From the NCBI GenBank assembly GCA_963732385.1, contig CAVSZB010000001.1:81193-145192 (forward strand): a stretch of DNA of 64,000 bases. Direction: 5' to 3'. Source of the stretch: an uncultured bacterium. Lineage in GTDB: Bacteria > Krumholzibacteriota > Krumholzibacteriia > LZORAL124-64-63. The notes beneath the pieces were generated by a model. The model had not been told where the DNA came from. It worked only from the letters and a program-made list of their open reading frames with translations, and searched no databases. Shown here piece after piece: positions 30,809-35,498 of this stretch. A program made the position numbers and the translations under genes. Position 1 is the stretch's first letter, and each line of letters begins with the position of its first letter.

Positions 30809-30911
30809 GCAGGGAACGGGCCACTGCACAACTCACTGTCATGATTGAAATTACGAAACGAAAAGCGGCCCGCGGCGCTGCGGTGTCCGCAGTCGGAGTG
30901 CGAATACCGCA
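30809..30911 (-). promoter_or_regulatory. Sigma54 promoter with two upstream TGCG-N5-CGCA enhancer palindromes
   Basis: Minus strand TGGC-CCGTTCC-CTGC (30809-30823); palindromes at 30879-30891 and 30899-30911; same geometry as 25535-25638. Confidence 0.75.
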
Positions 30912-31057
30912 CCGCGCCGTCAACGAGCGCAAGCGTGTCGAGGGCGACGAACGAGGCAGGTCCCGCGGTTCTCAGGGAGGCAGGCGGAAATATGTCTGTT
31001 ATCATGGGCGGGTGGCCGGCCCCGCGGCGCGCGGCCCCATCAATTGAAGGAGACGAC

Positions 31058-31396
31058 ATGCCGGGCAGACGCCCCCCCCTGCGGCGGCCGCAACCGCCGA
31101 AGGTGAAGAGCCCCGAGGAGATCGCGAAGCTCGTCAAGGAGCTCAAGAAGATGTCCGCGCCGGGGCACAACTACCGTGAGCGTTCACTCGCCATCCACGG
31201 CATGATCTGCGCGAAGTGCGCCCGCGAATTCACCGACGAGGATCGACACCTCCTCACAGTCCACCACAAGGACGGCAACGATGCCCATAACCCCCCCGAC
31301 GGCTCCAACTGGGAAAACCTCTGCGTCTACTGCCACGAAGCGGAGCACAGTCGCGGGCTGCTGGGCGACTACTGGACCGGGAAGAGGAAGCCGTAG
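31058..31396 (+). CDS. YajD-family HNH nuclease
   Basis: RBS AAGGAG; YRERSL, CAKCAREF, LTVHHKD, NPPDGSNWENLCVYCH. Confidence 0.85.
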   Translation: MPGRRPPLRRPQPPKVKSPEEIAKLVKELKKMSAPGHNYRERSLAIHGMICAKCAREFTDEDRHLLTVHHKDGNDAHNPPDGSNWENLCVYCHEAEHSRGLLGDYWTGKRKP

Positions 31397-31522
31397 TACT
31401 TTGGAATCTGACCACCGCATTTTGGGCTTATGTGATATAATGTGAGTTATTGGCGTGCGAGAGGCCGCGCAGGGCGGCGTGATCGAGCCAGCTTCGATCG
31501 GGCGAGGGGAGTTGCAGACATC

Positions 31523-33349
31523 TTGAGGGCCTGCAATAGTTTACGCGCCAAGTCCACATTCCCTGGCCGCCGGCTGTTCGCGGTGGCCGCCCTTGTGCTC
31601 GGACTCGCCGGCCCCGGGACGGCCAGGGCCCTGCTGCACATCGACTTTGAGCAGGCCATCTTTGCGCCGGCCGGTCTGGCGGTGATGGATTTCTGCGTGC
31701 TGCGTGAGGATGGTTTGTACCACATCTTCTATCACGCCATCCCCGAGGAGCTGCTGGGTCCGCCGGCAGTGAAGACCATCTACCACGCCACGTCGCCGGA
31801 TCTTGTGCACTGGGACCAGTGCCTTCCCGCCATCGAGCGCGGGCCGGAGATCTGGGAGGGGCTGGGTGTCTGGGCGCCCGACGTGGTTTGGGACGCGCCG
31901 CGCGGACAATGGCGGATGTTCTACACGGCGGCCGATTCCCTGTGGGTCCAGCGCCCCTGCGCCGCGTGGTCCGATGATCTCTATTCGTGGACGAAGGTCC
32001 CTGCGAACCCCTTGTTCCTCCCGGACACGCTGCAGTACTACTGGTCTCCGACATTGGCGTGGAGTTCGTTCCGCGATCCTTTCCTGTTCTTCGCCGACGG
32101 CGTCTGGCAGATGCTCTCCACGGCCGGCCTGCGCGTGGGAGGATATCCCGGCACCAAACAAGGCATCGTGCACCGCGCGGTGTCCACCGACCTGGAAACA
32201 TGGGCCGACGCGGGGCCGTTCTGGGCCCACGACGGGGCGACTCTGGCCTGGCATGATCTCGAGAGCGCGCAGTATCTGGTGCGGGGGGGCTGGCATCACC
32301 TGTTCGTGACCGAGCAGGATGTCGCCGGCGTCAGCCACATGGTCGCCGACACGGCAGGTGCCTGGACAATCGCGACCCGCACCCGGATCGACTACGGCTA
32401 CGCGGCCGAGATCGACGAGTTCGATCCCGGTGTGGACATCTTTTCACGCTATGTCATAAGTCAGCACCTCGATACAGGGAAACTGTTCTATGTCGCGCGC
32501 TTCGACACGCTGCGCTGGCTCGACGGCGGAAAGGTCCCCCAGGTCTGGAAGCCCCACCCCCTCAACCGGGATTTTGCGAATCTAACCGGACTCGCAACGT
32601 ATGGGCAGCCGACCTGGGGCGACAACCCGGTAGAACGCGGCGAACCTTCGAGCGGCCTGGTAGGAAAAGGCTGGTTCGGCAGCCAGGAGTTCTATCAGGG
32701 CCCCGGGTCGGGCCGCGGCTCGCCGGGCTCTCGCCTGGGAGACGCGGTTACAGGAAGCTGTGACAGCCGTCCTTTCGTCATCGAGGGCGACTTCATCAAA
32801 CTCCGGGTCGGCGGCGGGTACTATCCCGAGACCTGCTACGTCGCCCTCGTTGCCACCGACCCAGACACGATACTGGCCCGTGAGACCGGCACGGGCGTCG
32901 ATTTCATGACCGAGCGCATCTGGAACGTGCGCCCCTGGCGCGGGCGGTCTGCCTGCATCCGGATCGTCGACGAGGAGGTCGGCCCGTTCGGGCATATCAA
33001 CGTGGACGAGATCGAAGAAATTCTCGACCCGGTGACGGACGTCGGGCAGGGCCAGGGGGGGCCGGCCACGGGCCTGACGCTTCACGCGGCCAGCCCCAAT
33101 CCATTCAACGCCAGCACGGCCATCCGCTTCACCCTGCACGAGCCTGGACCGGTCGAAATGGTCGTCTACAACACCCGCGGGCGCGTCGTGCGGCGCCTGC
33201 CTCCCCAGCAATTCGACGCGGGCGATCACGCGATCTCCTGGCGCGGCCAGGACGAGCGCGGGCGGCCGGTGAGCACCGGGGTCTACATCTATCGCTTGCG
33301 GGTCGCCTCCGGCGCCTGGACTGTTGGGCGTCTCACGCTCGTGAAATGA
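31523..33349 (+). CDS. Secreted GH32-like five-bladed beta-propeller glycosidase with C-terminal FlgD-Ig domain (start uncertain)
   Basis: Signal peptide; DF..YHIFY, WAPDV, FRDP, LES; SPNPFN...GVYIYRL...LTLVK*; extended -10 TGaTATAAT at 31433-31441 argues against the 31442 start. Confidence 0.8.
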   Translation: MRACNSLRAKSTFPGRRLFAVAALVLGLAGPGTARALLHIDFEQAIFAPAGLAVMDFCVLREDGLYHIFYHAIPEELLGPPAVKTIYHATSPDLVHWDQCLPAIERGPEIWEGLGVWAPDVVWDAPRGQWRMFYTAADSLWVQRPCAAWSDDLYSWTKVPANPLFLPDTLQYYWSPTLAWSSFRDPFLFFADGVWQMLSTAGLRVGGYPGTKQGIVHRAVSTDLETWADAGPFWAHDGATLAWHDLESAQYLVRGGWHHLFVTEQDVAGVSHMVADTAGAWTIATRTRIDYGYAAEIDEFDPGVDIFSRYVISQHLDTGKLFYVARFDTLRWLDGGKVPQVWKPHPLNRDFANLTGLATYGQPTWGDNPVERGEPSSGLVGKGWFGSQEFYQGPGSGRGSPGSRLGDAVTGSCDSRPFVIEGDFIKLRVGGGYYPETCYVALVATDPDTILARETGTGVDFMTERIWNVRPWRGRSACIRIVDEEVGPFGHINVDEIEEILDPVTDVGQGQGGPATGLTLHAASPNPFNASTAIRFTLHEPGPVEMVVYNTRGRVVRRLPPQQFDAGDHAISWRGQDERGRPVSTGVYIYRLRVASGAWTVGRLTLVK

Positions 33350-33390
33350 TATGGAACGGCTAGTCAAACGTTGATTAGTGCGCTCCTCGG

Positions 33391-33414
33391 GGGCCCCGGC
33401 GACAGCCGGGGCCC
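33391..33414 (-). terminator. GC hairpin 3' of the IS non-coding RNA
   Basis: GGGCCCCGGC-GACA-GCCGGGGCCC, perfect 10-bp stem. Confidence 0.5.
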
Positions 33415-33433
33415 TTCTTACGCCTGGTTGTTG

Positions 33434-33594
33434 GGAGCAGGGACTGCAACGACGGTTGATCAGACTGATATCCGCGGGTTGGTTACCGCACACAATTCTG
33501 TCCGTCTCGGGGTGACCTCCGTCTAACACCGCGGGTCCAGCTCATGGCCTGCCGCATACTTCAAACGAGGATTCCCCTGACCGGTCCCTGCTCC
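33434..33594 (-). ncRNA. Putative bridge/seek RNA of the IS110-family element
   Basis: 11-bp closing stem GGAGCAGGGAC/GTCCCTGCTCC enclosing two internal-loop hairpins with shared TGCGG...CCGCG cores; loops match target and donor junction. Confidence 0.75.
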
Positions 33595-33604
33595 ACTCAG
33601 CGTC

Positions 33605-34720
33605 CTAGTGTTGCTTCGTGGCTGCGACCCACATCGCGGCCCACACGAATCCACTCAGTTCACGGGCCACCGCGACGGCGACCTTGTTGCGATGCTTCGT
33701 CTTCTCCAGGTGATGGAATCGCCTGCCGAGTCGATGCTGGGCCTTCACGGCGATCGCGACCATTTCAGGATCCTGACCCATCCGGCGGCGATCGAGGATC
33801 AAGGTCGAGCCTACCCTGTACTGGTAGTGCCAAGCGGCTTCGACTAGGATCCGTCTTAGGAATGTGTTGCCCGCCTTGGTGATCGAACCACGATGTTGTT
33901 GCTCGCCGCTGGAGTGCTCCTTTGACACCAACCCCGTGTACCCCATCAGCCGGTCCGGGTGACTGAAGCGACGGATGTCTCCGATCTCGGTGACCAACGT
34001 CATCGCCGTCAGGGTCTTGATGCCGCGGAAGCACTGCAGCGCCTCGACGGTCGCCCGCCAGGGCTCGCGACAGGACCACTGCTCGATCTCGGCGTCGAGC
34101 GACCGCTGCTGAGACTCGAGGTACTCCAGGTGGTCGAGGTCGTAGGCCAGGACCGTCTGCAGCGGGCCCGTCATCTCGCGGCGCAACGTGGCCAGCCAGG
34201 CGCGATGCTGCTTCGTCCAATTGCTTTTGGTCCCGGTGAAACGATGTCCGTGGGTAGCCAGCACCCGGACGATCCGATGCTTGCTGCGCACGATCTGACG
34301 CTGCAGCGACAGTCGGCATCGCACGAGCTGGCGTACCGCCTCTTGCTCCTCATCTGGTATCGTCACCGCCCGCAGATGGCCGCTGCGATACATGCGCGCC
34401 AAGCGCACGGCATCCAGGCGATCGGTCTTGCGGTGATCGCCCGGGCAGCGGGGGATCAGACTCGGGGCGATCACCTCGCACTGGAACCCATCGTGGTCCA
34501 GGGCCCGCTGCAGGACGTAGCCTGCACCCGAGGCCTCGTAGCATGCCCGCGGGGAGCCCTGCTTGGTCAAGCGGCGGAAGAGCCGGCGAACCGCGTTGAG
34601 GTCCCCTGGCAACCGGACAATCTCCGGGATGTCCTTGTCTCCAAAGAGGATCGCCGCGGTGATGGACTCCTGGTGAACATCCATGCCCACCCAAACGGTC
34701 GCTGTGCTATCGTGTGTCAT
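33605..34720 (-). CDS. IS110-family DEDD recombinase/transposase
   Basis: GMDVH, YEAS, KTDRLD (D-E-D-D); C-terminal GLVSKEHSSG, ITKAGN, VAVAREL. Confidence 0.97.
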   Translation of the reverse strand: MTHDSTATVWVGMDVHQESITAAILFGDKDIPEIVRLPGDLNAVRRLFRRLTKQGSPRACYEASGAGYVLQRALDHDGFQCEVIAPSLIPRCPGDHRKTDRLDAVRLARMYRSGHLRAVTIPDEEQEAVRQLVRCRLSLQRQIVRSKHRIVRVLATHGHRFTGTKSNWTKQHRAWLATLRREMTGPLQTVLAYDLDHLEYLESQQRSLDAEIEQWSCREPWRATVEALQCFRGIKTLTAMTLVTEIGDIRRFSHPDRLMGYTGLVSKEHSSGEQQHRGSITKAGNTFLRRILVEAAWHYQYRVGSTLILDRRRMGQDPEMVAIAVKAQHRLGRRFHHLEKTKHRNKVAVAVARELSGFVWAAMWVAATKQH

Positions 34721-34997
34721 GGCTGGGTCCTTTCGTGAGCGGGAGTTTCGGCTCCCTAGTGTCCCTGGTCCGTGCGGACTAACACACGATACCCGAGGGG
34801 CCCAGCCGTTCCATTATGTCTAGCCCTGGGGGATCGTCGCCACAGCCCCATCAGGGGTCTCGGATTGACGATTCCCGCCGCAGGTCGCACATCCCGTCCT
34901 TGGCTCCACGCCGGCCATCCGCTACGTTTGTCTCCGCCCCCGGCGCTGCCGCTTCCCTTCGCGCCGCGCCGCGCCTGTACCGTCACCATCCAGGAGT

Positions 34998-35498
34998 ATG
35001 CGCATGGACGCCTGTCCCTGCGGTTCCGACCGCGCCTACGCCGATTGCTGCGAGCCGTGTATCCTCGGCGCCCGCCCCGCCGCCACCGCCGAACAGCTCA
35101 TGCGCTCACGCTACACCGCCTATGTGAAGCACGAGATCCCCTACCTGGTCGCCACCAGTCACCCGGATCACCGGGACGATCAGGACGAGGCGGGGATCCG
35201 CGAGTGGTCCGAGGGCAGCGAGTGGCACGGCCTGGAAATCCTGAACGTGGAGCAGGGCGGACCGGACGACGACGAAGGCGCCGTCGAGTTCGCCGCGGAA
35301 TACAGCCACGACGGCGACCGCACCCGCCACCACGAGCGCGCCACCTTCGCGAAGCGGGACGGCCTCTGGTACCTGGTGAAGGGTGAGCGCGTCAAACTGA
35401 AGCCGTTCGTGCGCGAAGAGGCGAAAACCGGCCGCAATGACCCCTGCCCGTGCGGCAGCGGGAAGAAGTTCAAGAAGTGTTGCGGCGTGGCGGGATGA
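34998..35498 (+). CDS. YchJ family protein with SEC-C motifs
   Basis: [43 protein letters not shown]. Confidence 0.93.

Follow-up and report, generated by a model that had tools for sequence, protein, structure and literature searches.

An IS110-family element with a bridge RNA probably directed at the final codons and the stop codon of FlgD-type genes

How does a mobile element come to lie inside the stop codon of a gene and leave the encoded protein unchanged? The question is posed by an IS110-family element in the window, by which we mean the whole stretch of 64,000 nucleotides analysed here (features in Table 1). The host protein ends in ...LTLVK and has PF00251 and PF13860 above cut-off and TIGR04183 at 26.8 bits (cut-off 23). 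Its stop codon, at 33347-33349, begins with the core T and takes its other two bases, GA, from the end of the element; the reading frame of the host thus terminates at a new TGA and the protein stays as it was. In this protein a T9SS-type tail is joined to a GH32/GH43-like beta-propeller region. The flanks of the locus are ordinary (a YajD-family HNH nuclease gene at 30845-31396 and a YchJ/SEC-C gene at 34998-35498).

The ends of the element were fixed by comparing three copies in the genome with differing flanks. All three are identical over 1472 nt, with unrelated flanks on both sides, and all (3/3) are inserted directly after ...LVK of an FlgD_ig-ending gene, at the stop codon. Uninterrupted paralogues of the gene hit by copy 3 give the pre-insertion site, Val-Lys-TAA. 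The crossover lies after the T of the stop codon, and the three copies and the empty paralogous sites show a single shared T in the target core, the invariant T9, and no target duplication. An initial annotation of this DNA had supposed that the target is a large paralogous family of secreted proteins. The genome indeed holds about 100 genes with FlgD-type C-termini (100 by iterated profile; 87 matches to PF13860, 82 of them over cut-off), together with SprA over cut-off and a PorU-like gene at 416.8 bits (cut-off 420), so the tails are probably T9SS sorting tails, their role in secretion being judged from family membership.

Table 1. Coordinates of the element, its predicted bridge RNA, the host gene and related scars (window positions except in the last row).
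Feature	Position	Strand	Basis or remark
Host gene	31442..33349	plus	GH32-like N-terminal domain and C-terminal FlgD_ig/T9SS type A sorting domain; start codon uncertain
Left target T1-T8 and invariant core T9	33339..33347	plus	Three-copy comparison and unoccupied sites in paralogues of this genome
IS110-family element	33348..34821	minus	1472 nt from core to core (33348-34819), followed by donor core 34820-34821; three genome copies, all identical
Right donor GATAT	33348..33352	plus	First 2 bases finish the new TGA stop of the host gene
Sub-terminal inverted repeat, 11 bp	33351..33361	plus	3 nt from the right end of the element
-35-like hexamer TTGACT	33362..33367	minus	Sigma70-type pair with -10-like CATAAT (34813-34818), 17-nt spacing, in the inferred circle only
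GC-rich hairpin and short T tail	33391..33414	plus	42 nt past the new stop; kept in remnants
Predicted bridge RNA: basal stem, target-binding arm, donor-binding arm	33434..33594	minus	Fold and 15-sequence alignment
Right donor guide, complementary to the donor core and the right donor	33465..33472	minus	Guide and end co-change in L023, L025, L036
Left donor guide region	33491..33497	minus	2/4 match in the covariation-supported register
Right target guide (stop-codon reading), core guide AG and handshake guide AC	33521..33529	minus	Covariation
Left target guide, reading TG AAG TA	33557..33565	minus	T4-T8 each 89-101/106
DEDD recombinase, 371 aa	33605..34720	minus	PF01548, PF02371, NF033542; convergent with host gene
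Sub-terminal inverted repeat, 11 bp	34804..34814	plus	7 nt from the left end of the element
Left donor and donor core CT	34813..34821	plus	-10 box inside, minus strand
Right target	34822..34826	plus	First 2 bases are the remainder of the host's original TAG stop
Right-end scars	C3+169061, C7-283778, C8+445413, C5+377573, C4-220798		Strand-wise coordinates

The recombinase scores 239 bits against NF033542 (cut-off 140) and has the two features of the IS110 family, a DEDD RuvC-like domain and a Tnp20 domain with a catalytic serine, with intact catalytic motifs (D14, E62, D100, D103, S271-G272). Its nearest named relatives are ISSfr2, ISEc45 and ISSso6 (43%, 39% and 38% identity), which stand among the IS110-type entries, apart from the IS1111 block, in a published source-data matrix (PMC11187229). 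The two arms of the sub-terminal inverted repeat match perfectly, and their placing is that of the IS1111 group, in which such repeats of 11-13 bp lie 7 and 3 nt from the ends (PMC11187229); transposases of that group have 330-350 aa, the present one 371 aa. We class the element as a member of the IS110 family with an ISSfr2/ISEc45-like transposase and IS1111-style ends, and we do not file it as IS1111. When the ends are joined in silico, TTGACT and CATAAT come to lie 17 nt apart, a pattern that fits 14 of 29 relatives; by analogy with IS621 (PMC11208158) this junction would act as a promoter. The contigs of four sequencing runs contained no circle junction; the sediment runs hold near-identical elements, and their contigs break at the element ends. 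One RNA run gave only a contig of a diverged relative, and relatives were not found in viral contigs. A contig of run X2 skips 33599-34794, so that the transposase is gone and the RNA and both ends are kept, a non-autonomous derivative.

Noncoding DNA amounts to 257 nt on the 3´ side of the recombinase gene and about 100 nt on its 5´ side, and it is 3´ of the gene that the bridge RNA is predicted. The 191-nt strand folds better than its shuffles (z -2.93; 1 of 200 shuffles as good), and an alignment of 15 sequences supports a basal stem and two arms with an internal loop in each, with compensatory changes in 13 of 36 pairs. A search of the window against Rfam gave no family at gathering scores. 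The motifs quoted in the initial annotation occur where it had placed them, namely UUGAAGUA at 33557-33564, GUUA at 33524-33527 and AUAUCAG at 33465-33471, as do the 11-bp closing stem (33434-33444 with 33584-33594) and the two UGCGG/CCGCG inner helices. AUAUCAG, which it had equated with the predicted circle junction, is complementary to the junction deduced from both element ends, and the match of 6/8 between the UUGAAGUA guide and the empty target was correctly given. The poor match that it reported for the left donor guide is also found, at 2/4 in the register backed by covariation; in close relatives this register gives 42 of 65 matches (22.9 when shuffled; z 4.5). An alternative register with a 6/7 match in this element was rejected on its covariation (z -1.0). 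Also set aside was pairing between the CUCG that precedes the left target guide and upstream target bases: this stretch forms a conserved helix in all relatives, and the match is therefore due to chance. In L068, L065 and L031 one arm of the RNA is deleted, or the arms are fused through recombination between the parallel modules.

Whether the RNA reads the target can be judged from the way in which guides and sites change together. The register set comprises 188 loci, with the right end in 138 distinct sites, a parsed left guide in 106 and both flanks in 58; a few rows of the guide table (L006, L026, L125, L160) are misparsed. Among the 106, the left guide matches T3 in 51 cases, T4 in 90, T5 in 89, T6 in 101, T7 in 96 and T8 in 90, against 27, 39, 39, 30, 29 and 56 when shuffled, and it does not match T2. 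The right guide forms Watson-Crick pairs with T10, T11 and T12 in 56, 51 and 29 of the 58 (shuffled 35, 22 and 16), and the handshake letters agree with donor position 7 in 42 of 43 cases and with position 6 in 28 of 43 (shuffled 23.2 and 17.7). Within the FlgD clade alone, covariation at T5, T6, T7, T10 and T11 has p of about 0.002 or less, values that are overstated because the shuffles ignore kinship. The covariation of guide with target that had been proposed as a check is thus present, with letters that track each other through Lys/Arg and TAG/TGA switches. At TGA sites both guides are switched to read TGA (3/3), and at TAG and TAA sites the guide has UA (18/18). Arg-codon guides belong to elements on Arg-ending genes (L018, L023, L029, L258); L067 has a Lys guide on an Arg-ending gene, and both it and L019 match their own left guide weakly. 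Where the element end is a variant starting with AG (L023, L025), the donor guide is changed to match and the host stop becomes TAG. Two insertions outside the target class, L017 and L036, match their own guides, as RNA guidance predicts.

Some details of the reading proposed at the outset have to be revised. A specific wobble at the third base of the Lys codon had been invoked to fit both AAG and AAA; among 28 sites, guide G stands against target A in 4, and guide A against target G, where wobble is impossible, also in 4. The tolerance of AAG and AAA appears rather to reflect a lax first core position, a base known to be less conserved (PMC11208158). GUUA had been said to fit both TAG and TAA. 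U:G wobble, by which a TAA guide would read TAG, is compatible with the data, although on thin evidence (3/21, with no C:A case), and the claim does not extend to the fourth base, which we rejected as a guide letter since T12 is Watson-Crick paired in only 7 of 21 cases in the FlgD clade.

Relatives of the element occur in 46 of 208 genomes of the phylum. Searching with letters of the element ends only gave 65 + 22 places, all of which were examined; two with less than 45 nt of flank were left out, which leaves 85 evaluable ends (63 + 22). FlgD stops account for 78 of these (57 + 21), WxxxKxxYR stops for 3 and other places for 4, in assemblies that are MAGs and among relatives that are not independent. 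At the 78 FlgD stops the penultimate residue is V in 31, L in 29, I in 14 and M in 4, and the last is K in 66 and R in 12. The proposed (V/L)-K-stop target therefore stands as to FlgD-type C-terminal stops (3/3 here, 78/85 in the phylum) and is too narrow as to sequence, the class being (V/L/I/M)-(K/R)-stop. Insertion at the ends of FlgD/T9SS-like genes, as it predicted, also holds for intact elements: a clade of 26 with intact transposase (support 100/100) has 20 at FlgD stops, 4 elsewhere and 2 truncated, that is, 20 of 24 evaluable. In the transposase tree, built from 49 rows with near-full protein, the FlgD-targeting elements form a separate long-branch clade apart from ISSfr2, ISEc45 and ISSso6. 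The pre-insertion triplet is a stop codon in 21/21 FlgD sites, 7/7 Tyr-Arg sites and 26/42 outgroup sites. Of 55 ends, RNA is missing from 26, of which 20 keep a strong hairpin, so that the census favours retained scars; the 29 with RNA lie at FlgD stops in 27 cases. As controls, a soil outgroup with the same RNA layout but other guides has an in-frame run of at least 100 aa at only 3 of 101 sites, and in another phylum matches in 12 of 251 genomes gave 19 loci with 13 called ends and no FlgD. The TGA-forming element end is present at 100 of the 101 outgroup sites, and is best read as a lineage-wide pre-adaptation, not an FlgD-specific invention.

We put at about 0.85 the probability that this is a bridge recombinase of the IS110 family with a target loop programmed to recognise the final codons and the stop codon of the genome's largest paralogous C-terminal motif. 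As the comparisons show, the left guide reads approximately T4-T10, covering bases 2-3 of the hydrophobic codon, the Lys or Arg codon and the first two bases of the stop, and the right guide reads the stop codon itself (T9-T11), with crossover after its T. The element end, GA or in the variant AG, then gives the host frame a new stop with no change to the protein. For the chemistry and expression we infer a course like that of IS621, in which cleavage follows T9 (PMC11208158): excision to a circle, a promoter at the junction, strand exchange after T9 and handshake pairing with donor positions 6-7. As the first core base differs (target G or A, donor C), the degenerate third base of the Lys codon would fall at a tolerant position. 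A guide this short would match many sites, and the FlgD bias would come from its programming plus the removal of insertions within genes, with the persistence of ends that provide both a stop and a hairpin, and possibly recognition of the upstream T (T1), as additions. The benefit would be that each genome, throughout the phylum, offers some 100 landing sites that are safe and conserved. The GC-rich hairpin (folding energy of 33375-33425, -31.0 kcal/mol) is a possible terminator for the host gene; a terminator scan called none at 33391-33414.

How much of the bias the guide itself can bear is seen from the sites that the genome offers. By rough gene calls, the 164 empty TGAARTAR sites divide into 125 in genes, 25 intergenic, 6 at other stops and 8 at FlgD stops. 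The FlgD share would be about 7% from the guide alone and about 26% from the guide plus harmlessness; with 31 harmless non-FlgD sites against 11 FlgD sites (8 empty and 3 filled), the chance of 3/3 FlgD is 0.018. The guide alone is thus insufficient, and selection or an unread upstream base contributes. T1 is T in 30/30 sites with no covarying guide letter, and requiring CT at T1 leaves 11 sites, 6 of them FlgD. Guide letter 2 and T1 are co-conserved (27/28 and 30/30), and a putative bulged pairing between them fits 26 of 71 outgroup cases against 19.4 expected (p 0.051). With so many matching sites inside genes, remnants of end and hairpin that persist, and a TGA-forming end throughout the lineage, one might suppose ordinary short-motif targeting at any TGAART(AR) site and an FlgD pattern produced by survivorship only. 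Yet intact elements sit at FlgD stops in spite of the more numerous harmless alternatives (binomial 8e-9 at p 11/42, overstated through kinship and the single-genome background), and the guide stays (hydrophobic)-(K/R)-stop across transposases of 55-100% identity as its third-position letters drift. Such constancy amid drift itself needs selection for the target class. Survivorship is accordingly unlikely as the whole account; it explains part of the FlgD bias and is folded into the reading of a programmed guide.

The invariance of T1, which the guide leaves unexplained, and a further upstream bias could instead point to the recombinase reading a longer FlgD-end consensus or a terminator hairpin, with the RNA match secondary; hairpins occur in many right flanks, and several IS1111 elements target folded sites (PMC11187229). 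Against this stand the position-specific covariation within the FlgD clade and the elements of the same clade that have altered guides and are located elsewhere (L036), and the protein motif alone would give an upstream bias; we regard direction by protein or structure as very improbable. Still less probable is that one or a few ancient insertions were multiplied when FlgD domain tails were duplicated or underwent gene conversion. The genome does contain paralogues whose tails are identical, and remnants could spread in this way, but the unrelated flanks of the three identical copies contradict it for intact elements, copy 3 is seen from its empty paralogues to have inserted recently and independently, and the flanks differ among the 78 sites.

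Guide-programmed insertion at gene ends appears to extend beyond the FlgD clade. A sister clade, with about 41% identity and a support of 100/99, has 7 of its 8 ends at stop codons that follow a ...W-x-x-x-K-x-x-(Y/F)-R tail, and its guides read Tyr-Arg-stop. L050, a second IS110 element of the source genome (C6:54036-55399; 41% identity), is inserted at the stop codon of a gene whose product ends in SWSAVKSLYR. At least 14 genes there have the WxxxKxxYR tail, of which one carries an intact element and two carry scars; their products are diverse proteins of 120-380 aa, many with signal-peptide-like starts, and the tail, which has no model in Pfam or NCBIfam, is a candidate sorting signal. L189 adjoins this clade in the tree yet sits at an FlgD stop. 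Three further cases are leads. L176, on a short metagenome contig, has a K-F guide at a TonB-receptor-like protein ending in K-F-stop, which aligns with the final 47 positions of TIGR01783 (E 4.5e-7); L173, also on a short metagenome contig with K-F-stop, is TonB-receptor-like by resemblance only; and L168 has what is presumably a TctC/Bug-like tail (V-D end, 14 aa, short contig).

Scars of the right end, comprising stop, repeat and hairpin but no transposase, lie directly 3´ of FlgD or WxxxKxxYR genes in the source genome (Table 1). A loose search found them at 7 of 100 FlgD stops but also at 159 of 7934 other frames and is thus unspecific, so that only three FlgD scars followed by a hairpin were accepted, by eye. 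At L261, a stretch of about 40 nt made of two facing right ends joins convergent FlgD genes and supplies both stops. At L207 and L202, two kinds of element ends lie between convergent FlgD and WxxxKxxYR genes, which suggests recombination between elements or shared scars. A broader proposal, to which we give slightly less than even odds, is that a lineage of bridge recombinases repeatedly evolved guides against DNA-encoded protein sorting signals: T9SS-type tails in two separate clades (including L189), the WxxxKxxYR tail, and possibly the tails of TonB receptors and TctC/Bug proteins. Its guides would read the second positions of codons and may bulge over the third position to T1, and stop-plus-hairpin scars would become permanent 3´ ends of secreted-protein genes.

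The target of IS621 is REP, and IS900, IS901 and IS902 insert between the ribosome site and the start codon. As IS621 is described (PMC11208160, PMC11208158), the present element resembles it in a pair of internal loops, each bearing a left and a right guide, a 14-nt target and donor with the core at 8-9, an invariant T9 and a lax position 8, handshake guides to donor positions 6-7 and, by prediction, a junction promoter. It differs in the RNA 3´ of the recombinase, the 11-bp sub-terminal repeats, a target core unlike the donor core, an extra letter of the left guide for T10, a short and weak left donor guide, and a target that is a coding end. The IS1111-group seekRNA elements ISEc11, ISKpn4 and ISPa11 share the 3´ non-coding RNA, the 11-bp repeats placed 7 and 3 nt inside the ends and, when the RNA is read in the orientation of the recombinase, the guide order; the targets given for them comprise attC, REP, repeats of transposons and short linear sites (PMC11187229). 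ISSfr2 has the same RNA layout, and its cluster with ISEc45 and ISSso6 shows no FlgD context, at one locus per named member with a readable end. IS900, IS901 and IS902 also insert at gene boundaries and rarely disrupt genes (PMC8141618), but at the starts of unrelated genes and not at a coded C-terminal motif and stop codon common to a single family of paralogues. Tn7 TnsD and CAST homing likewise find safe landing through conserved gene sequence, read by protein or guide RNA, but use one essential gene or tRNA per genome, downstream insertion and multi-protein DDE machinery (PMC10293859), where the present element has about 100 paralogue sites, a crossover inside the stop codon and a single recombinase.

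No report of IS110 elements targeting C-terminal codons or stops was found in the largely open-access literature searched. The term 'stop codon' has no match in the main text of PMC11187229, PMC11208160 and preprint 10.64898/2026.08.14.744561, and in the seekRNA preprint and PMC2516522 it concerns only the elements' own genes; the target tables of PMC11208160, in which three IS names were looked up, may contain unannotated examples. As a strategy of harmless landing, insertion at gene endings is apparently undescribed for the IS110 family.

In conclusion, the sequences indicate that gene-end targeting is real, extends over multiple genomes and is supported by the guides, and that the machinery itself is of a known kind. 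The coding ends of large paralogous families, with the protein left unaltered, would constitute a new target class for IS110 elements. The relatives are also a natural collection in which to study the tolerance of bridge RNAs for degenerate positions and for a mismatch at the first core base, with a bearing on reprogramming for insertion exactly at a stop codon where the target core is not CT. In addition, C-terminal sorting motifs that have not been described can be recognised from guide sequences, as with the WxxxKxxYR tail. Judged from the scars, IS ends appear to rewrite the 3´ ends of genes in this phylum.
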